A DNA stretch of 64,000 nucleotides, taken from contig CAWJKZ010000027.1 of NCBI GenBank assembly GCA_963843575.1, forward strand, positions 64,588 through 128,587, written 5' to 3'. The stretch is from an uncultured Acidobacteriota bacterium (GTDB lineage Bacteria > Acidobacteriota > UBA6911). The notes under the pieces were generated by a model. The model had not been told where the DNA came from, made no database searches, and saw only the letters and a program-made list of their open reading frames with translations. The position numbers were made by a program, and so were the translations under genes. This document shows positions 17,049-26,959 of the stretch, piece by piece. How positions within the stretch are numbered: the first letter of the stretch is position 1; each line of letters begins with the position of its first letter.

Positions 17049-18647
17049 TTGACGAACCAGTTCAGGACCGCGCTCGAGAAGGGTGAGTTTGTCTACACGG
17101 CAGAACTGGTGCTCGGCAGGGACCACTCGGTGCCGGAGGCCGAGGAGTTCGTCCGCGCCGCGGCACGGGAGCCGCGAGGCGTGCGGATCGTCAGCGTCAC
17201 CGATCTCCCCGGCGGGAACCCAGCCCTACCACCCGAGGCGTTCGTCCCCTTCCTCCTAAAAAACGGCCTCACCCCCATCGCGCACCTGACAGGCAAGGAC
17301 GGCAACCGGGCCGCAATCGAGAGCCGTCTCCACGCGCTGGCGCGCCTGGGGGTCGACAACATCCTAGCCCTGACGGGCGATGCGCCGCGCAGCGGGTTCC
17401 TGGGCAGACCGAAGCCGGTCTTCGATCTCGATTCCGTCCTGATCCTCCGGCTCATCCAGGCCATGGGCTCCGGGATCCGATTCGAGGTCGGTTCCAGGAC
17501 GGCACAGACCACACCCTTCGAGTTCTTCGCCGGCGCCGTGGTCAATCCCTTCAAAGGACGGCAACCCGACCTCATGATGCAGCTCTACAAGCTGGAGCTG
17601 AAGATCAGGGCGGGCGCCGCGTTCGTCATCCCGCAGATCGGGTACAACCTCCGCAAGTTATACGAGGCCAGGCAGTACATGATGCGGGAAGGGCTTGCAG
17701 TGCCCGTCCTCGCCAACGTGTACGTCCCGACGGCCGCCATCGCACGCCGGATGAAGGAGGGTGAGATCCCAGGCTGTGCCGTCGGCGATGCGCTCATCCG
17801 CCGGCTGGAGGGGGAAAAGAAGCCGCAGCGGCTGGAACGGGCGGCCCTGATGGTCGCAGCCGCCAGGACGCTGGGCTTTGCCGGGGCGCACATCGGGGGG
17901 TTCGGGCTCAGCCACGGCGATTTCCTCCACATCATCGACCGCTCGCTCGAGATCGGGCCCGACTGGAAAGGCCGCATCGACGAACTCCTGTTCGAGACGA
18001 CGCCCGACGAATTCTATCTCCTCCCGGCGGCGGCCGACGGTCTCAGTGACGGCGCGGGACGGTATCGGCTCCCGGCCCTCCCCGCGCCCACCTTGAACGC
18101 CCGGGTCGGTGACCTGGTCCACCGGCACCTGATCGACCCCAGCTCGGCTCCAGCCAGGTTCCTCTCCCGCCGGTTCGGCGGGCGCGAGGGGAACGGCGCG
18201 GGCTGGAGGACCGGTTTCTGGTACCGGATGCTCGGCCTGGCGACCCTTTACCGCAAGGCGGCCCTGGGCTGCGCTGGGTGCGGCGACTGCGTTCAGGACC
18301 ACCTCGGTTACGCGGGCTGCTCGATGCGCTGGTGCTACAAGAACCTGCGCAACGGCCCGTGCGGCGGCTCGCGCCCCGACGGCTCGTGTGAGGCCGTCCC
18401 GGAAAACCCCTGCATATGGAACCGGGTCTACCTGAACACGCTCGGGCTGAAGCGCGACCCCGGCAAATTCGCCTCCACCCTCGTCCCGCCGCGCGACTGG
18501 GGCCTGGACCACACCAACGCGCTCGCCAACCGGTTCGCCGGCATCGACAACCTCGAGCGCCGGGCCAGGCTGGAGGCACCGGGGACAGAACACCGGGAAG
18601 ACGACCGGAGTGAACTCGACGGGGCGGATGAAACCCGCCCCCGCTAA
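17049..18647 (+). CDS. Methylenetetrahydrofolate reductase (MetF-type) fused to a C-terminal MetV-like Cys-rich domain
   Basis: VTDLPGG, HLTGKDGNR, NILALTGD, KIRAGA; C-terminal CAGCGDC...CSMRWCYKNLRNGPCGGS...CE...PCIW. Confidence 0.85.
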   Translation: MTNQFRTALEKGEFVYTAELVLGRDHSVPEAEEFVRAAAREPRGVRIVSVTDLPGGNPALPPEAFVPFLLKNGLTPIAHLTGKDGNRAAIESRLHALARLGVDNILALTGDAPRSGFLGRPKPVFDLDSVLILRLIQAMGSGIRFEVGSRTAQTTPFEFFAGAVVNPFKGRQPDLMMQLYKLELKIRAGAAFVIPQIGYNLRKLYEARQYMMREGLAVPVLANVYVPTAAIARRMKEGEIPGCAVGDALIRRLEGEKKPQRLERAALMVAAARTLGFAGAHIGGFGLSHGDFLHIIDRSLEIGPDWKGRIDELLFETTPDEFYLLPAAADGLSDGAGRYRLPALPAPTLNARVGDLVHRHLIDPSSAPARFLSRRFGGREGNGAGWRTGFWYRMLGLATLYRKAALGCAGCGDCVQDHLGYAGCSMRWCYKNLRNGPCGGSRPDGSCEAVPENPCIWNRVYLNTLGLKRDPGKFASTLVPPRDWGLDHTNALANRFAGIDNLERRARLEAPGTEHREDDRSELDGADETRPR

Positions 18648-18662
18648 CGCGGAGGTCTCACC

Positions 18663-19466
18663 ATGCTCGTCATAGGCGAGCGCATCAACGCGACGCGCAA
18701 ACGCATCCGGGAAGCGGTGCTTGCCGGTAACGCGGATCTGATCAAAGAAGAAGCGCGCAGGCAGGTCGAAGCCGGCGCCCACATGCTCGACGTCAACGGA
18801 GGCATCGAGGGGAGGGAGCCGGAACTGTTGAAGTGGCTCGTCGGCATCGTCCAGGGCGTGACGGACGTGCCGCTGTGCCTCGACAGCGCCGACCCGGACG
18901 CGCTGCGCCAGGCCCTGCCGCTGTGCCGCGGCCAGGCGATGATCAACTCGGTCACCGACGAAGACGCCCGCTGCGCGGCCCTTCTGCCGGTGATCCTGGA
19001 AGCGCGCACGAAGGTGGTCGCCCTCTGCATGTCCGCCTCCGGGCCGCCATCGGGCGTGGACGACCGCGTGACCACCGCCGTCCGCCTGGTCGACAGGCTC
19101 ACCTCCGCGGGCGTTCCGCCGCAGGACATCTACGTCGATCCCTGCGTGTTTCCCACAAGCACCGGGGGTGCGCATGGCCCCGCGCTGCTGGAGGCCGTTG
19201 GCCGGATCAGGGCACTCTGCCCCGAGGTCCACACGACCTGCGGGGTGAGCAACGTCTCGTTCGGGCTACCGGCGCGGAAGCTGCTGAACGAGGTCTTCCT
19301 CATGATGCTGCTCGGGCGCGGCCTCGACGCCGCCATCATCGACCCGTGCGACACCGGACTGATGGCCCGCGTAACCGCCGCCGAAGCCCTTATCGGGCGC
19401 GACGATTTCTGCGAAGCCTACCTGCTCTCCTACCGCGCCGGCAAGCTCGGGGAGGTCTCCAGGTAA
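18663..19466 (+). CDS. acsE: Methyltetrahydrofolate:corrinoid methyltransferase (pterin-binding, AcsE/MT2 type)
   Basis: IGERINATRK, LDVN, PLCLDS, MINS, YVDP, CGVSNVSFGLP.RKLLN, LDAAIIDP. Confidence 0.82.
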   Translation: MLVIGERINATRKRIREAVLAGNADLIKEEARRQVEAGAHMLDVNGGIEGREPELLKWLVGIVQGVTDVPLCLDSADPDALRQALPLCRGQAMINSVTDEDARCAALLPVILEARTKVVALCMSASGPPSGVDDRVTTAVRLVDRLTSAGVPPQDIYVDPCVFPTSTGGAHGPALLEAVGRIRALCPEVHTTCGVSNVSFGLPARKLLNEVFLMMLLGRGLDAAIIDPCDTGLMARVTAAEALIGRDDFCEAYLLSYRAGKLGEVSR

Positions 19467-19822: not shown

Positions 19823-21331
19823 ATGGTCAACAAAATAAGCTACAAGCTCATCCTGGCCGTGGGCGGCGTGGCGCTTGTCATCGTAAGCGCCTACGCCTTC
19901 GTGACCCTCAGGGCCCATCACGCGCAGCTTATCAGCGAGTTGCGCCGTAGCGCGAATCAGCTCAGCGAGACGATCAAGAGCAGTACCCGATACGACATGC
20001 TGTTGAACCAGCGGGAATCCGTGCACCGCATCATCAACACCATCGGCACACAGGAGGGCATTCAGAAGGTCCGCATTTTCAACAAAGAGGGGGCGATCAT
20101 CGTCTCGACGGATTCGGCCGACATCGGCCGGATGGTGGACAAGAATGCGGAGGCCTGTTACGTCTGCCACGCGGCGAATCAGCCTATCGAGAGACTGGGG
20201 ATACCGGATCGCACCCGCATTTTTCAGCCCGCGGGCGGCGATCGGATCCTGAGCATCATCAACCCCATCTACAACGAGCCGACCTGCTGGCAGAGCGACT
20301 GCCACGCACACGACCCCGCCAAGAAGGTGCTGGGCGTGCTGGATATATCGATGTCGCTGCGCGACGTGGACCGTGAAACGAGGGCCAGCGAGAACCGCCT
20401 GGTGCTGTTCGGCCTCGGAGCCATCGCCGCCGTAAGCCTGATCATTTACCTGTTGGTCGACCAGATCGTGCTCAAACCGGTGCACAAGATCGTGGACGCG
20501 ACCCGCAAAGTGGCCGCCGGCGACCTCCACTACAAGATTGCCCTCGAGAAGCGGGACGAGATCGGTCAACTGGCGAGTTCCTTCAACGAGATGACGCAAA
20601 AACTCGCGGAAGCGCAGCGCCAGGTCTATCAGTCGCAAAAGCTCGCGGCCGTCGGCCAACTGGCCGCGGGAGTTGCGCACGAAATCAACAACCCCCTCAC
20701 AGGGGTGCTGAGTTACAGCAGTTTTCTGCTCAAGCGCGCACAGGACAAGCCCGAGTTCAAGGAGGACCTGGAGGTGATCGTGCGCGAGACCAAGCGGTGC
20801 CGCGGAATCGTGCAGGGTCTGCTCGACTTCGCGCGCCAGTCGCCGCCGGAAAAACACGAGAGCGACATAACAGATATTTTCGAGCGCGCGCTCCGCATCG
20901 TGCAAACCCAGATCGACCCGCTTCGCGTCGAGCTGAAGAAGGACATCCGCGACGACCTGCCCAAGATCTACGCGGACGCCAATCAAATCCAGCAGGTCCT
21001 GGTCAACCTGCTGCTCAACGCCAACGACGCCATGGCCGCGGACGGCGGTACCCTTTCGGTCTCCGCCCGTCTCGCGGGGGACGGGGGCGTTGCGGCTGCA
21101 CAGTCCGGGAAGATCGAGATCCGCGTGAGCGACACCGGGTGCGGCATAGCGCCCGAAAACCTGCAGAAGATCTTCGATCCATTTTTCTCGACCAAAGGGC
21201 CAAAGGGGACCGGCCTCGGGCTGGCGGTGGCGTGGGGCATCGTGGAAAAACACAACGGACGAATCGAAGCCGAGAGCGAATTGGGCAAGGGGACAACCTT
21301 TCGGGTTGTGCTGCCGATAGGCAGGGGCTAG
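19823..21331 (+). CDS. Sensor histidine kinase with periplasmic heme-c motifs, HAMP, HisKA and HATPase domains
   Basis: Two TM segments flank CYVCH and CWQSDCH; DEIGQLASSFNEM HAMP; AHEINNPL H-box; GTGLGL G-box. Confidence 0.92.
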   Translation: MVNKISYKLILAVGGVALVIVSAYAFVTLRAHHAQLISELRRSANQLSETIKSSTRYDMLLNQRESVHRIINTIGTQEGIQKVRIFNKEGAIIVSTDSADIGRMVDKNAEACYVCHAANQPIERLGIPDRTRIFQPAGGDRILSIINPIYNEPTCWQSDCHAHDPAKKVLGVLDISMSLRDVDRETRASENRLVLFGLGAIAAVSLIIYLLVDQIVLKPVHKIVDATRKVAAGDLHYKIALEKRDEIGQLASSFNEMTQKLAEAQRQVYQSQKLAAVGQLAAGVAHEINNPLTGVLSYSSFLLKRAQDKPEFKEDLEVIVRETKRCRGIVQGLLDFARQSPPEKHESDITDIFERALRIVQTQIDPLRVELKKDIRDDLPKIYADANQIQQVLVNLLLNANDAMAADGGTLSVSARLAGDGGVAAAQSGKIEIRVSDTGCGIAPENLQKIFDPFFSTKGPKGTGLGLAVAWGIVEKHNGRIEAESELGKGTTFRVVLPIGRG

Positions 21332-21345
21332 GCATAGACTTTGCG
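21330..21345 (+). promoter_or_regulatory. Possible sigma-54 -24/-12 promoter
   Basis: AGGCATAGACTTTGCG has GG-N10-GC spacing, ~120 bp upstream of the receiver-GcvH-like gene. Confidence 0.3.
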
Positions 21346-21466
21346 GCCGGCGACGAGCGCTTTCCTGGATCGTGCCCCGACGGTATCCTCGCGTGGACCG
21401 TTCGGCGCGCCGTCGTGCGGACCTCATCCATGGCCGGCGGTTGTCCGGCTTCGTAGAGGCTGAGAG

Positions 21467-22627
21467 GTGGAAAACATGGTTCCTATTCTCGTCGTGACGA
21501 TGATCGCGGCGTTCATCGTCGTCGATCTGCTGATCAGGTATGTGTCGAACCGAATGCGCAAGGCCAAGGAACTCAAGGAACGCCTTGCCGCACTGGATAC
21601 GGGCCTGCGCCTCGATTTCACCCACGAAGCGAAATCACTCAAGCGGGTGGAGGTGGCCAAGCCGTACGCGCGCATCCTCGCCGTCGACGACGAGGCGATC
21701 GTCCTGGACAGCTTCAGGAAAATCCTCGTCGCGGCCGGATACGCGATCGACACGGTCGAGAGCGGCCGCGAAGCGCTCGGGCTGGTCCAGAGAAACAAGT
21801 ACGATTTCGTCTTCACCGACCTGAAGATGCCGGAAATGGACGGCCTCGACGTGGTCAAGGGGGTGAAGCACTTCAGCCCGGAATCGGACATCGTCGTCAT
21901 CACGGGCTATGCGACGATAGAATCCGCCGTCAATGCGATGAAATACGGGGCGATGGACTACGTGCAGAAGCCCTTCACCGAAGACGAGTTGGTCGAGTTC
22001 ACCAGGAAGTGCCTGATCCGCAGGCACGACCGCCTGCAGAAAGGGCTGGCCCCCACCGTGCGCGTGGTGACGACAGACCGGCTGCGCGCCAACGAGTTCC
22101 GCATCCCGGGGGGCGTGTTCATCTCCGGCGGTCACGTCTGGGTGAGTGTCACGGTGCCGGGGATCGTGCGGGTGGGGATGGACGATTTCGCGCGCAAGAT
22201 GATAGGCCACATCGACGGAATCGAACTGCCGGCCGAGGGCGCCGCCCTGAAGAAAGGCGATCCCCTCTTCAAGGTGAGGCAAGGGGGACGCGTGGCCACC
22301 TTTCACGCGCCGGTCTCGGGTGTCGTCCAGAACCTCAACACCGACTTGCCGCGAAACCTGGACTGGCTGGAACGGCACACCTACGAAAACGGGTGGGTGT
22401 GCTCGATGAAACCCGATCACCTTGCCGACGAGCTCGCGCAGATGAACATCGGCGACAAGGCCGCGGCCTGGTACCAGTTGGAGATCGCGCGTCTGCAGCA
22501 ACTGTTTGCACCGCCGCTCGACGACCCGTCCTCGGGGCTCGCGCCCGTCACGCTCGTGGAAGGCCAGTTGCAGGAGGCCGATGACGACCTGTGGGCCAGG
22601 TTTGCCGGGACGTTTCTGCAGCCGTAG
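21467..22627 (+). CDS. Membrane-anchored response regulator receiver fused to a GcvH-like domain without the lipoyl Lys
   Basis: N-terminal TM (ILVVTMIAAFIVVDLLI); VDDE...FTDLKMP...ITGY...KPF receiver; GHVWV...VRVGMDDFA...APVSG...YENGW GcvH fold. Confidence 0.85.
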   Translation: MENMVPILVVTMIAAFIVVDLLIRYVSNRMRKAKELKERLAALDTGLRLDFTHEAKSLKRVEVAKPYARILAVDDEAIVLDSFRKILVAAGYAIDTVESGREALGLVQRNKYDFVFTDLKMPEMDGLDVVKGVKHFSPESDIVVITGYATIESAVNAMKYGAMDYVQKPFTEDELVEFTRKCLIRRHDRLQKGLAPTVRVVTTDRLRANEFRIPGGVFISGGHVWVSVTVPGIVRVGMDDFARKMIGHIDGIELPAEGAALKKGDPLFKVRQGGRVATFHAPVSGVVQNLNTDLPRNLDWLERHTYENGWVCSMKPDHLADELAQMNIGDKAAAWYQLEIARLQQLFAPPLDDPSSGLAPVTLVEGQLQEADDDLWARFAGTFLQP

Positions 22628-22729: not shown

Positions 22730-23669
22730 ATGGAAAAGAAGCTGCACCGCCGCACGCTCCTCAAGCTGGGCCTGGCCGCGACCGCCGGGGGTTCGACTCC
22801 CCCGCTGGCGCTGGCGTCGTCCCAGCCGCAAGGGCAGAATCAGCCCCCTCCGGACCACGCGGGCGTGCTCGTGGACACGACACTCTGTATCGGGTGCCGG
22901 AAGTGCGAGGAGGCGTGCAATCGCCGGAACAACCTGCCGCGCACGGCCGACGTCCTTTTCAGACCGGGAGGTCCTGCGCTCGTTCCGCCGGCCCAGCGAA
23001 ACCGCGTTCACCGTGGTGAACCAGTTCCCGGGGAGCCCTTCACCCGACCAGGCCGACCTGCCGCAGACATATGCGAAGGTCCAATGCATGCACTGCCTCT
23101 ACCCGTCCTGCGTCTCGGCGTGCATCGTGGGGGCGCTGACGAAGTCGGCGGACGGCGCAGTGGTCTACAACCCCACGATCTGCCTGGGCTGCCGCTACTG
23201 CCAGGTCGCCTGTCCCTTCGAAATCCCGGCATACGAGTTTCATGAACCGCTCGTGCCGCGTGTGCGCAAGTGCGAGTTCTGCACCGACCGCGCGCGGGGC
23301 ACCGGGGCCAATCCCGCCTGCGCCGCCTCTTGCCCCACCGAGGCCCTGGTCTTCGGCCGCAGGGCGGAGTTGCTCGCCATGGCCAAGGAGCGCATCAAGA
23401 AACGCCCCAACCGCTACGTCAACCACGTGTATGGCGAGACGGAGGCGGGGGGGACCGGCTGGCTCTACCTGACCGGGCGGCCGGTGCAGGAGGTCGGACT
23501 GCTGAATCTCCCGAGCAAGGCTCCGCCGCAGCTGACCGAGACCATTCAGCACGGCATCTTCAGATTCGGCATGATCCCGATCGCGTTCTATGGCCTGCTC
23601 TCATACCTGTGGCACCGCAACATGCAGCGGCCCGGCGATGCCGGCACGACCGAAGGCGGTGCGGAATGA
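22730..23669 (+). CDS. Tat-exported 4x[4Fe-4S] ferredoxin, HybA/NrfC-like, with C-terminal TM; frameshift ~22955
   Basis: HRRTLLK; CIGCRKCEEAC, CMHCLYPSCVSAC, CLGCRYCQVACP, CEFC...PACAASCP; YGETEAGGT. Confidence 0.9.
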
Positions 23670-26600
23670 CCCCCAGACTTCACGACGAACACGGCCACCG
23701 CGTCACAAAACCCTTCTTCACCTTCGGCACGTTGACCCTCCTCATTTTCATGGGCGCCGGGTTTGCCTTCGGCATCACGCGCCTGTTTCTCGGGCTGGGG
23801 ACCGTGACCAACCTGGACAACCACAACCCGTGGGGGATCTGGATTGCGTTCGACGTAGCGTGCGGCGTGGCCCTGGCCGCCGGCGGGTTCACCACCGCCG
23901 CCCTGGTCGATATCTTCGGCAAGAAGAGATACAAAGTCCTGCTGCGCCCGGCCATCCTCACGGCATTCCTCGGTTACCTTTGGGTGGCTATCGCGCTGAG
24001 CTTCGATCTCGGCCGGTACTGGAACATCTGGCGGCCCATCTTCAACTGGCAGGGGAACTCGGTGCTCTTCGAGGTGGGCATGTGCGTCACCGCCTACCTC
24101 ATGGTGTTGACCGTCGAGATGAGCCCGGCGTTTCTGGAAGGGCTGAAAGCCCGCATCGACCGGGACGAGTGGGGCGCGGCGCTGCTGCGCAGAGTGGAGA
24201 AACCGCTCCTCACGCTTCACGCCGCCGTCAAGATCGCCCTGCCGATGTTCATCGTCGCCGGTGTGGTGCTCTCGTTCATGCACCAGTCATCCCTGGGGAC
24301 GCTCATGCTGATCGCCCCCAGCAAGATGAGCGCCCTGTGGTTCACCCCCATCCTCCCGCTCCTGTTCCTGCTGTCGGCGATCATGGTCGGGTTCCCGATG
24401 GTCATCCTGGAGTCCATCTACGCCAACATAAGTTTTGGCCGCAACCCGGAAATGGATCTCCTGACCCCGATGGCCCGCATCATCCCCTGGTTCCTCGGGC
24501 TCTACGGCGTGGTGAAAATCGGCGACCTCGTCGTCCGGCATAATCAACTGAATTTCCTCGAGCACCCCGCATCCACCACCGCCCTCGCGATCGAGATCCT
24601 GCTGGGCGTCGTAGCCCCCTTCCTGCTGTTTCTCAGCAAGGCGGTCCGCCGGTCCATGGGCTGGATGTTCTTCACCGTTTGCCTGATCATCTTCGGCGTC
24701 GTGCTGAACCGGCTCAACGTTTTCCTGGTGGCCTACAATCCCCCGTACTCCACCAAGGCTTACTTCCCGTCGATCGGGGAGATCGCGATGACCATCGCGA
24801 TCGTTTCCAGCATATTGTTCTGCTACCGCTTCTGCGTGACCTTCTTCCCGATCCTGCCGGGCTACGTGCCGAGCGTCGAGGTCCAGATCGCACGCATGCG
24901 CGAGGAACGCGAAACGGCCGTGAGCCCGTTCTGGACCTGGGCGATCCGCGGTGCCGCCATAGCGTGCCTCCTGACCTTCATCGGCCTGTACAGCTTTGTG
25001 CACATCGAGGCCATCCAGTCCTCCGTAAAAACCGTCCAGGAGGTGCGGCGCGTTCAGACGCAGATGCGCGTCTCCGCCGCCGGCGCGCCGGGGCCTTCCT
25101 ATCCCCAGCGTCCCTCGGGCTACAAGAACTTCTACCTGCTGGACAGCCCCCTGCTGAAGGCCAGGGCGGACGACTACGAGCCGGTGCGCTTCTCGCACCG
25201 CATTCACGATGGCTTGACCGGGGGGGACTGCGGAATCTGCCATCACCGTTTTGCGGGCGACGAGAAGGATCGGCTGGGAAACGACGTCAAGGAGCTGCAC
25301 GCGTCCATAGACGTCAAGCTGGGCGGTCCCTGCTCTTCCTGCCACGACAACATGGAACAGAACCCGCCCCAGAGCTGCACCCGCTGCCACGGGATGCCCA
25401 ACGAGCCGGACAGCCCCTCACGCCTCGGGCTCAAGGGCGCCTACCACCGCCTCTGCATCGGCTGCCACGAACGCCAGGTCAAACCGACCTCCGCGCCGAC
25501 GGAGTGCGCCGCCTGCCACCACCCATGGACACCGGATCATTCCAAGCTGGTCACCCTCGGAGCGAAGCCCAGCCCCCAGGACGTGACGCGGGCGTGCCTG
25601 AGCTGCCACGCCAAGGCGGGGCAGGACCTGCTCAAGACAGCCCACTGGAACTGGAAGGGCTCCTCTCCCACGCTGGCGGGCTACGAGCGCCGCACCGACA
25701 TCAGCCTGAAGCTCATGGTGAACAACTACTGCGTCGCCATCGGATCCAACCAGCAGCAATGCATGTCCTGTCACATCGGCTACGGCGGCATGGATGACCG
25801 CTACGATTTTTCCAACCCGGCCAACATCGATTGCCTGATCTGCCACGACACGACCGGGAAGTACAGAAAGGATCCAAGCACGGGCGGACTGCCCGATCCG
25901 TCGGTCGACCTGGTCGCGCTGTCGGCCAGGGTGGGCCGCCCCTCACGGCAGGCCTGCGGTTCGTGCCACTTTTATAGCGGCGGAGCTCCCAATGCCAAAC
26001 ACGGGGACCTGGAGCCGGCCTTGACCGACTCGAACGAACCGATCGACATGCACATGGGTACCCTGAATATGCGGTGCCAGGATTGCCACACCACCAGCGA
26101 ACACAGGATCGCCGGGATGTCGCTGACTGCCCCCGCCGTCGAAGGGCGCATAAGCTGCGACAAGTGCCACGGCCTCACGCCTCACGGGGTTGCCGGCTCG
26201 CTGAGCCGCCACCTGGACGATCACATCGCGAATATCGCCTGCGAAACCTGCCACATCCCTAGCTTTGCCCATCGCTCCCCCACCCTGCTGCGGCGCGATT
26301 TTTCCACCGCAGGCCAGAACCGGCCCGAAACCCTCGACCGGTACGGGATGCCAACCTACGACAAGAAGTTCGGCGCGCTTACCTGGGGGAAGGACTTGGT
26401 GCCCGTCTATCTCTGGTACGACGGGACGCGCAACGCCTCCCTCGCCGGCGGCCGCATCGACCCTTCCTCCCCCGTCCTTCTGAACGCCCCGGTCGGGGAA
26501 AAACGCAGTCCCGTGGCGCGCATCTTCCCCTTCAAGGTGCACGCCGGGGTCCAGCCCTACGACACCGAAAACAACACCCTCGCCTTGCCCGATTTCGTCG

Positions 26601-26959
26601 GGAACTACTGGGTTAACTTCGATTGGGCGAAAGCCCTCGTCGCCGGCATGAAGCGCATGGGCCTACCCTATTCGGGCAAGTACGCATTCGTGGAAACCAA
26701 GATGTACTCCTCCATCCACCACCAGGTCGCACCGGCGAAAAAGGCGCTGGGCTGCACCGATTGTCACAGCGCGGCGGCCGTCACGTGCGCGCGTTGCCAC
26801 AAGGGAGCTGCGGGGACCGCGCTCCCGTCGCACCGGCTCGCCATGTACCCCGAAGTAAAGAACCGGATGGATTTCAAGGCGCTCGGCTACACCGATGATC
26901 CCGCCCTCACGGGCGGCCGCTTTCACATCACCATCGGCCGTGGCTCGCCCGCACAATAG
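23666..26959 (+). CDS. NrfD/HybB membrane quinol-oxidoreductase subunit fused to cytochrome c3-like and octaheme tetrathionate reductase-like domains (14 CxxCH)
   Basis: ATGA overlap with the ferredoxin gene; PWGIWIAFDV, GVALAAGGF, DLGRYWN, HQSSLG (HybB/NrfD); PVRFSH...LKGAYH (c3); HWNW...NNYC...SN...CxxCH.GYG, DCLICHD, DMHM, CETCHIP, IFPFKVH (OTR). Confidence 0.9.
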   Translation: MTPRLHDEHGHRVTKPFFTFGTLTLLIFMGAGFAFGITRLFLGLGTVTNLDNHNPWGIWIAFDVACGVALAAGGFTTAALVDIFGKKRYKVLLRPAILTAFLGYLWVAIALSFDLGRYWNIWRPIFNWQGNSVLFEVGMCVTAYLMVLTVEMSPAFLEGLKARIDRDEWGAALLRRVEKPLLTLHAAVKIALPMFIVAGVVLSFMHQSSLGTLMLIAPSKMSALWFTPILPLLFLLSAIMVGFPMVILESIYANISFGRNPEMDLLTPMARIIPWFLGLYGVVKIGDLVVRHNQLNFLEHPASTTALAIEILLGVVAPFLLFLSKAVRRSMGWMFFTVCLIIFGVVLNRLNVFLVAYNPPYSTKAYFPSIGEIAMTIAIVSSILFCYRFCVTFFPILPGYVPSVEVQIARMREERETAVSPFWTWAIRGAAIACLLTFIGLYSFVHIEAIQSSVKTVQEVRRVQTQMRVSAAGAPGPSYPQRPSGYKNFYLLDSPLLKARADDYEPVRFSHRIHDGLTGGDCGICHHRFAGDEKDRLGNDVKELHASIDVKLGGPCSSCHDNMEQNPPQSCTRCHGMPNEPDSPSRLGLKGAYHRLCIGCHERQVKPTSAPTECAACHHPWTPDHSKLVTLGAKPSPQDVTRACLSCHAKAGQDLLKTAHWNWKGSSPTLAGYERRTDISLKLMVNNYCVAIGSNQQQCMSCHIGYGGMDDRYDFSNPANIDCLICHDTTGKYRKDPSTGGLPDPSVDLVALSARVGRPSRQACGSCHFYSGGAPNAKHGDLEPALTDSNEPIDMHMGTLNMRCQDCHTTSEHRIAGMSLTAPAVEGRISCDKCHGLTPHGVAGSLSRHLDDHIANIACETCHIPSFAHRSPTLLRRDFSTAGQNRPETLDRYGMPTYDKKFGALTWGKDLVPVYLWYDGTRNASLAGGRIDPSSPVLLNAPVGEKRSPVARIFPFKVHAGVQPYDTENNTLALPDFVGNYWVNFDWAKALVAGMKRMGLPYSGKYAFVETKMYSSIHHQVAPAKKALGCTDCHSAAAVTCARCHKGAAGTALPSHRLAMYPEVKNRMDFKALGYTDDPALTGGRFHITIGRGSPAQ

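Follow-up and report, generated by a model that had tools for sequence, protein, structure and literature searches.

The locus examined here lies in a window of 64,000 nucleotides (the whole stretch of DNA analysed) from an uncultured Acidobacteriota bacterium, and raises the question of whether a single polypeptide joining an NrfD/HybB membrane domain to a long series of heme motifs, the last of them in the fold of octaheme tetrathionate reductase (OTR), is a respiratory enzyme or an electron conduit.

Architecture of the fusion protein and its partner

Translation of 23666-26959 (+) gave 1097 aa with zero internal stops, in which an NrfD/HybB domain, an 11th helix, a pentaheme c3-like domain, an OTR-fold octaheme domain and a ninth heme follow one another. 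All features described below likewise lie on the plus strand. The motif scan located 14 CxxCH motifs, compared with about 0.04 expected from the composition, at residues 522, 556, 571, 597 and 614, at 644, 699, 723, 764, 804, 831, 859 and 1030, and finally at 1041. Profile matches over the cut-off were obtained for NrfD PF03916 (47-356), Cytochrom_CIII (552-618) and Cytochrome_cB (877-1036), as well as for TIGR04315 (624-1037; 471 bits, cut-off 375). The single unbroken frame of about 1097 aa, the HybB/NrfD domain, the extra helix and the list of motifs given in the preliminary description were thus all found to be exact by translation, motif scan and profiles.

The HybB/HmcC-type NrfD domain (aa 14-398; 23705..24859), assigned by profile, hydropathy and comparison with HybB residues, has ten predicted helices, and is followed by an 11th transmembrane helix (aa about 426-446; 24941..25003), which was recognized from hydropathy (427-445), loop charges and a model helix (421-470) and is predicted to lead the chain back into the periplasm. 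The pentaheme c3/HmcA-like domain (aa about 485-625; 25118..25540; five CxxCH) was assigned by profile and alignment in a region of low model confidence; it contains five invariant His residues (511, 514, 527, 545 and 594) besides those of the motifs, and its top solved-structure match was the C-terminal part of HmcA (E 2e-13). The OTR-fold domain (aa 624-1037; 25535..26776), with eight CxxCH (644-1034), was assigned by TIGR04315 and by its match to 1SP3 (E 1e-113), and its predicted model was also in good agreement with 1SP3 in Foldseek (E 2e-33, TM 0.84 by target, rmsd 3.3). The C-terminal tail (26777..26956) carries the ninth heme motif, CARCH, found by motif scan. Two His residues absent from stand-alone OTRs, His849 (111/111 fused proteins) and His1056 (104/111), are candidates from the alignment for second ligands in the tail and ninth-heme region.

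Since 111 of the 121 homologous proteins (query included) were at least 1080 aa long with 13 or 14 CxxCH, an assembly artefact does not account for the fusion, and the architecture is common to 110 further full-length protein clusters besides the query. The preliminary description had held that stop codons separating the domains in relatives would speak against it; none separate them in these 111 full-length fused proteins. At the 25 GTDB loci, the fusion lay in one frame in 18, was cut by a contig end in one and was interrupted in six by scattered frameshifts at non-recurring places. Support across the c3-OTR junction, for which the preliminary description had also called, was provided by one public contig that runs continuously over 25259-25807. 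A read-through or assembly artefact as the source of the fusion was ruled out by these proteins, loci and contig together. The Nitrospirota loci L026-L029, considered as further carriers, were rejected as operons of unfused c3, HybA, NrfD and another cytochrome.

Directly upstream, 22730..23669 encodes a HybA/HmcB-like 4x[4Fe-4S] protein, recognized by profile and motifs, having a twin-arginine signal (RRTLLK) and a C-terminal anchor helix. The coupling to a Tat 4x[4Fe-4S] HybA-like gene noticed earlier was borne out by this signal and by the ATGA at 23666-23669, where the start of the fusion gene overlaps the upstream stop; the earlier reading had, however, missed that the HybA-like gene is frameshifted in the window by one extra base near 22950. 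A true frameshift would mean that the module is dead in the source organism, which we consider highly improbable: an otherwise identical 151-bp public contig has one base fewer at this place (one contig, depth 2, weak), the large fusion gene is intact, and scattered frameshifts also occur in other assemblies of the fusion family. Of the 24 relative loci extending into the HybA-like gene, 22 had it in a single frame, and it was directly upstream of the fusion in all 24 with enough DNA. The extra base is probably an assembly error.

The membrane subunit and known modules

The NrfD domain showed 32% identity to E. coli HybB (E 8e-54) and, in structure comparison, a TM-score of 0.69 by target with ActC. 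When compared with the quinone-site and proton- (ion-) path residues of HybB listed in PMC8076601, equivalents of E. coli HybB D58, R89, Y99, D109, S129, E133, E148, H184 and R329 were present, and D63, R94, Y104, D114, S132, E136, E151, H206 and R349 were at least 90% conserved in the fused family, while the positions of HybB S105, S190, R265 and E268 were replaced. With its domain, ten helices, site residues and adjacent Tat four-cluster iron-sulfur partner, the membrane part belongs to the NrfD-like HybB/HmcC/NhcC group. The earlier proposal of a compact complex of two gene products linking quinol to the periplasm was supported by these retained residues and by the invariable upstream position of the HybA-like gene.

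A three-gene module of a Tat tail-anchored iron-sulfur protein, a HybB-like quinol oxidase and an OTR-family octahaem cytochrome is already in print in the available part of PMC10924467 (Gallego-Parrilla et al., 2024, Fig. 3a,b), and the novelty of the present locus is therefore lower. According to that part, the published module, whose function is predicted, resembles the present one in its parts, their order, the lack of a catalytic hydrogenase and the variable flanking genes, and here too a Tat/C-tail iron-sulfur gene immediately precedes a HybB-like gene accompanied by an OTR-family cytochrome. In contrast, the cytochrome is not a separate third gene here but is fused to the membrane subunit via the 11th helix in 111 full-length clusters, has six additional hemes and is without the OTR lysine. 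The fusion itself was not found described in the literature searched, from which Mowat 2004, the Pereira 2011 Ohc/Nhc survey and most subscription papers fell outside, and Table S3 of PMC10924467 may list examples.

The core of Hmc (HmcABC), Nhc and E. coli HybAB are alike in having an HmcB/HybA-like iron-sulfur subunit and an HmcC/HybB/NhcC-like ten-helix NrfD protein, and the c3-type hemes are most like the C-terminal part of HmcA. Unlike in those systems, no HmcE/HmcF-like gene was present among the neighbours, no hydrogenase adjoined, and the scores stayed below the equivalog cut-offs (HmcC 288 vs 550, HmcA 60 vs 400; E. coli-type hydrogenase 2, HybOABC, 314 vs 450 bits, without adjacent NiFe subunits). 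Assignment as a hydrogenase 2 or Hmc subunit, as some labels have it, was rejected on these scores and the absence of adjacent partner genes.

A tetrathionate-induced 'otr' of Ca. Sulfomarinibacter, reported in the available part of PMC8528874, was also considered as a member of the fused family and rejected. Its forward primer matched in two of 119 genomes, both times in soluble OTR-like frames of 481-483 codons that keep the lysine, and so that experiment probably concerns another subfamily; the reverse primer had no match in either locus.

The OTR active site

We take the heme-ligating lysine of OTR to be residue 56 of 1SP3, and Cys64, Asp150 and Lys153 to be the pocket residues. Lys56 was K in 119 of the 120 stand-alone OTRs, the remaining one having no coverage of the site, compared with K in 3, R in 6 and L in 97 of the 111 fused proteins; Asp150 was kept in 119/120 and 0/111, respectively, in a control set that is the neighbourhood of one query, more distant OTRs varying at Cys64 and Asp150 and rarely at Lys56. 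Within the former active-site loop of the query (25706..25774), Leu681 aligns with position 56, and Cys689 (OTR Cys64) and the heme II motif CMSCH are kept; Pro775 (25988-25990) stands at Asp150, and Lys778 (OTR Lys153) is retained. Compared with the Shewanella oneidensis OTR (1SP3, TIGR04315), the domain thus shares the fold, eight CxxCH, Cys64, Lys153 and non-motif histidines, but lacks Lys56 and Asp150, has a changed Trp-rich segment and a ninth heme, and ends a predicted 11-helix membrane protein instead of being soluble and periplasmic. The catalytic heme of OTR is ligated by lysine according to the available parts of PMC11024163 and PMC12285233, and because this lysine is lost, the OTR-fold end is likely a wire rather than an enzyme. 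We give a probability of roughly 60% to the reading that the two genes encode a quinol-periplasm conduit whose OTR-fold end does not catalyse.

Several further features of the domain are consistent with the conduit. The cysteines of the heme II motif are gone in 18 of the 111 fused proteins, which retain the other 13 motifs; the trees placed this loss in at least two events, a single origin being rejected (p-AU 0.026, 27-row subset), with the gene order unchanged. Among stand-alone OTRs (n=118) the site rates of the loops 679-704 and 770-779 were 0.49 and 0.28 (domain mean 1.11), whereas among fused proteins keeping heme II (n=93) they were 0.86 and 1.11 (domain mean 0.92), close to average; the heme V-VII stretch was slower in the fused (0.62) than in the stand-alone set (1.16). 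A precedent is MmcA of Methanosarcina acetivorans, which the available part of PMC11024163 describes as a membrane-linked electron conduit, related to OTR in fold but without lysine and heme II. MmcA is, however, an archaeal seven-heme Rnf member, whereas the present protein keeps the heme II motif and is fused to NrfD; its score against TIGR04314 (MmcA) was 22 bits (cut-off 250), and no rnf genes were found among the scanned neighbours. The lysine loss here was probably independent of that in MmcA, which lies outside the trees.

The same site also yields evidence against the conduit, as the query has retained its heme II motif together with Cys689 and Lys778. In addition, lysine loss is not fatal to NrfA-family catalysis: the K134H variant of NrfA retains as much as 40% activity, and NrfAs with a natural CXXCH are active, according to the available parts of PMC8840924 and PMC12285233. 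The structure model of the 1097-aa fusion (pTM 0.47), which contains no hemes and gives no domain arrangement, likewise tempers this reading. The main alternative, possible but less probable, is a rebuilt enzyme, in which His703 of the CxxCH would ligate heme II and Cys689 would be its sixth ligand or a catalytic thiol, giving a TsdA-, SoxA- or MccSep-type heme; the 14-heme members would then be quinol-linked S/N reductases or oxidases and only the 13-heme members wires. A Cys-ligated active-site heme has been described for MccSep (available part of PMC13510729), His-ligated NrfAs are active as noted above, and His703 is invariant in the fused family. Furthermore, a cysteine at 688/689 was found in 91 of the 93 members with the heme II motif, compared with any cysteine in this loop in two of the 18 without it, and thus the cysteine still matters to heme II. 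However, His703 also persists where heme II is lost, and so may serve another heme, and Lys153 is retained in 16 of these 18, so that its retention does not point to catalysis. The loops next to the site have lost their constraint even in members that keep heme II, this heme was dropped at least twice without change of gene order, and the near-invariant Asp150, Arg at 698 and Trp at 876/877/879 and 1015 of stand-alone OTRs have disappeared, with few conserved residues close by to take their place. A further proposal, which is unlikely, is that heme II, after a switch to His703/Cys689 ligation, is a TsdA/MccSep-like sulfur centre on an OTR fold, joined within one chain to an NrfD quinol site that may be coupled to protons. 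On that view the 14-heme proteins would be respiratory sulfur oxidoreductases of a single-chain type so far undescribed and common among uncultured Acidobacteriota and further phyla, and their 13-heme sisters would be pure wires.

That the fusion is an OTR-type enzyme appears doubtful from the alignment, and an ordinary reductase of tetrathionate, nitrite, hydroxylamine or sulfite, with Lys682 in place of Lys56, seems very improbable. The TIGR04315 cut-off is passed and a lysine does stand one residue off; nevertheless, Lys682, which aligns with the variable OTR position 57 (K in 57/120), occurs in only 8 of the 111 fused proteins and was rejected as a substitute ligand. His675 (100/111) was likewise rejected as a new ligand, being Arg in the query and kept also in members without heme II. 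Even the Shewanella OTR lacks an in vivo role in tetrathionate respiration, the physiological role of OTR having been open since 2004, according to the available part of PMC12949373. In favour of such an enzyme, the distant fused protein P0245 keeps Lys56, Cys64, Asp150 and Lys153, and P0244 keeps Lys56, Cys64 and Lys153. Because these more distant relatives keep the OTR site, the family containing the fused proteins, as judged from its residues, appears to span enzyme to wire, and would have originated from a fused HybB-cytochrome-OTR enzyme still bearing the lysine. P0245 with the full site, the query without the lysine but with heme II, and P0093 and P0072 without heme II form a natural series on one scaffold. 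Such a series allows a direct test of what the lysine-ligated heme does, and would document a bacterial enzyme-to-wire change parallel to that of archaeal MmcA.

Genome context and electron flow

In the favoured conduit, menaquinone would be oxidised or reduced at the NrfD domain, and electrons would pass along the four iron-sulfur clusters of the Tat-exported partner. The fused heme chain would trade these electrons with carriers in the periplasm, its OTR-fold end acting as wire and docking surface. Electrons would run in the order quinol, iron-sulfur clusters, pentaheme domain, OTR fold, with the ten helices and the 11th placing the hemes outside, the remaining hemes presumably bis-His ligated, and proton coupling possible. 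Flow may be outward, to periplasmic carriers and outer-membrane conduits, which is somewhat more likely than inward flow (about two to one), since a periplasmic uptake hydrogenase that could feed the module was not found. The genome's three NiFe loci look cytoplasmic (two scored Vhu-like, the third judged from ORFs only), and no hydrogenase or molybdoenzyme subunit was detected by profile scan among the 23 ORFs at 13.4-36.4 kb, as the preliminary description had stated. Neither dsrA nor NrfA was found in the genome (88% complete). Of the two roles that description had offered, electron export is favoured, whereas reduction of an S or N oxyanion by an OTR-type enzyme is disfavoured by the absence of Lys56 and Asp150, here and in almost the entire family, and by the losses of the heme II motif (18/111).

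The genome holds an OmcA/MtrC, DmsE/MtrA and barrel-like locus, which supports the conduit, as does co-occurrence: OmcA/MtrC exceeded the cut-off in 10 of 12 fusion-bearing genomes compared with 7 of 29 others (5/6 vs 6/19 genera), although this is co-occurrence among kin, six of the ten being one genus. Against it, G006 (94% complete) has the fusion but no OmcA/MtrC over the cut-off, the Mtr-type locus adjoins its own Rieske/cytochrome b module, and the MtrB-family model had no match in the genome. If the conduit reading is true, the module is a candidate for the inner-membrane step at which electrons enter extracellular transfer in uncultured bacteria. Database labels call the fused proteins 'octaheme c-type cytochrome (tetrathionate reductase family)' or 'Ni/Fe-hydrogenase cytochrome b subunit', and conclusions about sulfur or hydrogen cycling that rest on them in genomes of Acidobacteriota, Binatia, NC10 and Aminicenantes are likely wrong for the fused clade.

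The probable Acidobacteriota host proposed earlier fits the nearest named homologs. No RNA data sets were listed among the public runs matching the stretch, which carry only small shares of it. The upstream MTHFR and methyltransferase genes did not recur beside relatives. A membrane-anchored response-regulator receiver with a GcvH-like domain (21476..22627) lies next to the module at 7 of the 25 relative loci, and a sensor histidine kinase whose periplasmic cache-like domain contains a CxxCH (19823..21331) does so at 5 of the 25.

Fused gene, relatives and neighbours

Translation of window 23666-26959 (+) yielded 1097 codons in one frame with 14 CxxCH motifs (about 0.04 expected from composition), confirming the single frame and the motifs of the preliminary description. 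Above cut-off, Pfam detected an NrfD domain (aa 47-356), a class III cytochrome domain (aa 552-618) and a Cytochrome_cB domain (aa 877-1036); among NCBIfam models, TIGR04315 for octaheme tetrathionate reductase (OTR) scored 471 bits against a cut-off of 375, and HybB (314 bits, cut-off 450) and HmcC (288 bits, cut-off 550) stayed below theirs. The hydropathy profile gave the NrfD part ten helices and put an eleventh, the extra helix claimed earlier, at about aa 426-446; the basic loops fell on alternating membrane sides by hydropathy and loop charges, a pattern that a cytoplasmic N-terminus with periplasmic hemes would fit. An AlphaFold model (pLDDT 72.7, pTM 0.47), whose pentaheme part is unreliable and which does not predict the arrangement of the domains, matched the OTR structure 1SP3 (TM 0.84 by target) and, less closely, the alternative complex III subunit ActC (TM 0.69).

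In a set made of the query and its best 120 of 689 protein matches, 111 of the 121 proteins, query included, were at least 1080 aa long; these form the fused set, the ten shorter ones being left out of all family counts, with 14 CxxCH in 92 members and 13 in 19. Of 25 closely matching loci in GTDB genomes (Acidobacteriota, Binatia, NC10, Aminicenantes and one deltaproteobacterium), 18 were single-frame, one was ended by a contig edge and six were frameshifted at varying places. The fusion occurred in 12 of 41 genomes searched as relatives (its own included), and its nearest named homologs among the matches listed (80-83% identity) make an Acidobacteriota host likely. The fusion is thus real and common. 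Neither it nor its lysine loss was found described in the literature searched, nor in the passages of PMC8528874, PMC10564751, PMC9250108, PMC11492766 and PMC13510729 covered. An unfused module of FeS, HybB-like and OTR-family genes has been described, with no function assigned (PMC10924467). The tests made here concern the stand-alone control, the difference in site rates, the graded series of active sites and the recurrent loss of heme II.

The proposed coupling to a Tat 4x[4Fe-4S] HybA-like gene held: a HybA/HmcB-like gene, which begins at 22730 and encodes a twin-arginine signal, four groups of cysteines and a helix at the C-terminus, overlaps the fusion start at its end, and lay directly upstream in 24/24 relative loci reaching it. 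In this assembly it carries a frame shift near 22950, which is likely an assembly error because an otherwise identical 151-base public contig (one contig, depth 2) has one base fewer there and the gene is single-frame in 22 of those 24 loci; that the module is dead in this organism is most improbable.

Further upstream lie a sensor kinase carrying a heme motif and a protein with receiver and GcvH-like parts, which are predicted to be optional regulators; they stand beside 5/25 and 7/25 relative loci, respectively (flanks of differing length). At window 19823-22627 and loci L044, L046, L047 and L050, HybA/HybB-like pairs without any cytochrome or catalytic subunit repeatedly have as neighbours a kinase whose periplasmic sensor bears CxxCH, together with one to three GcvH-like proteins, an association not found described in the literature searched. 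The window's GcvH-like domain seemingly lacks the lipoyl lysine. At window 17049-19466, an MTHFR fused to a DUF5981 domain precedes a methyltetrahydrofolate:corrinoid methyltransferase-like gene, a pair not conserved beside the module.

Active-site losses in the OTR-like end

The numbering of the OTR pocket residues Lys56, Cys64, Asp150 and Lys153 agreed with the 1SP3 alignment, where the fusion has Leu681 at Lys56 and Pro775 at Asp150 and retains Cys689 and Lys778. In OTR, a conserved lysine ligates the catalytic second heme, heme II (PMC11024163 and PMC12285233). In the control, for which a stand-alone OTR of locus L008 supplied its 120 best-matching relatives (one neighbourhood of OTRs), Lys56 was present in 119/120 (the remaining one not covering the site), Cys64 in 119/120, Asp150 in 119/120 and Lys153 in 120/120, as against 3/111, 86/111, 0/111 and 97/111 in the fused set drawn from the best 120 of 689 matches plus the query. 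Among the matches listed, both heme II cysteines were missing in 18/111 fused members, the heme II histidine was invariant, and Lys682, next to Leu681, occurred in 8/111. Judged by these residues, the OTR-like end has lost the hallmark of OTR.

Site rates on trees agree with this even among the 93 fused members retaining heme II: loops 679-704 and 770-779 had rates of 0.86 and 1.11 there (mean 0.92), versus 0.49 and 0.28 in 118 stand-alone OTRs (domain mean 1.11). The heme V-VII stretch had a rate of 0.62 in the fused set versus 1.16 in stand-alone OTRs.

A rebuilt catalytic heme is the main rival reading, less likely than the conduit described below: a cysteine stands at 688 or 689 in 91/93 members with heme II, versus any cysteine in this loop in 2/18 without it (among the matches listed), and His-ligated NrfAs stay active (PMC8840924, PMC12285233). 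That the fusion is an ordinary OTR is very unlikely, and even the Shewanella OTR is dispensable in vivo for respiring tetrathionate (PMC12949373).

Family history

A tree built from 135 OTR cores grouped the fused-set members sampled into one clade (support 0.998), whose early-branching group has K or R at the Lys56 place in 6/7 members. Lysine was kept in the more distant fused protein P0244, all four residues in another, P0245, and lysine again in three soluble 13-heme proteins (P0247, P0270, P0274) that have the c3-like, OTR and ninth-heme parts as in the fusion; in 75 distant representatives whose core is complete, lysine was mostly kept, Cys64 and Asp150 being variable. In trees without the heme II loop, the heme II-less fused protein P0072 stood apart from the other 17 such members, and a single origin of the loss was rejected (p-AU 0.026; 27 rows, the group named after seeing earlier trees). 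Heme II was, by these trees, lost at least twice.

Related NrfD fusions to a six-heme c3-like part, with no OTR part, were seen at L041:7426-9354, L042:7381-10242 and L045:5980-7830. Their operons are Hmc-like and include CCG or NarI-type genes, a setting that points to this lineage as the probable source of the fusion's front half. The L041 fusion adjoins aprBA-like genes. Tandem OTR-fold domains, or OTR with C-terminal membrane segments (12-22 hemes), occur in proteins P0242, P0248, P0250, P0251, P0258 and P0276, and a soluble OTR-like subfamily at loci L058, L059, L064 and L065 has seven CxxCH plus one longer-spaced motif, with lysine kept.

Quinone site, electron route and genome context

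The fusion aligned with E. coli HybB at 32% (E 8e-54). HybB D58, R89, Y99, D109, S129, E133, E148, H184 and R329 correspond to D63, R94, Y104, D114, S132, E136, E151, H206 and R349, each with a conservation of 90% or more in the fused family among the matches listed; other residues stand at S105, S190, R265 and E268. These nine belong to the HybB residues of the quinone site and ion path, and replacing R89, Y99, E148 or H184 impaired hydrogen oxidation (PMC8076601). Because these residues are conserved, the quinone site likely works and proton coupling is possible.

The preliminary description proposed a quinol-to-periplasm complex serving an S or N oxyanion or electron export. With the OTR lysine and Asp150 lost, we favour the two-gene module as an electron conduit from quinol to the periplasm (probability roughly 0.6), the electron-export option of that proposal faring better than the oxyanion one. 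Menaquinol would react at the NrfD site, and electrons would pass via the four FeS clusters of the partner and next the pentaheme domain to the OTR-fold heme chain, which would hand them to periplasmic carriers; outward flow is somewhat favoured. MmcA offers a precedent for a non-catalytic OTR fold.

The genome (88% complete) holds cytochrome c maturation genes and three NiFe hydrogenase loci, cytoplasmic in appearance; dsrA and nrfA were not found in it. An Mtr-type locus (G000:C13:183955-192440) encodes OmcA/MtrC, DmsE/MtrA and a barrel-like protein with no family match. OmcA/MtrC scored above cut-off in 10/12 fusion-bearing genomes versus 7/29 others, or by genus 5/6 versus 6/19, a co-occurrence that is a hint only, since kin are not independent, genome G006 breaks the pattern and the Mtr-type locus lies back to back with its own Rieske, cytochrome b and multiheme genes. 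Two further NrfD genes adjoin an ActA-like pentaheme gene and accompany a molybdoenzyme, respectively. At G000:C25:155200-159600, behind a TtrB-like FeS gene, a 1185-codon frame apparently joins NrfD to a Psr/Phs-like molybdoenzyme (fusion or read-through). Very large multiheme proteins are also encoded, and neighbouring frames at G000:C18:110882-116580 carry 23 and 43 CxxCH.
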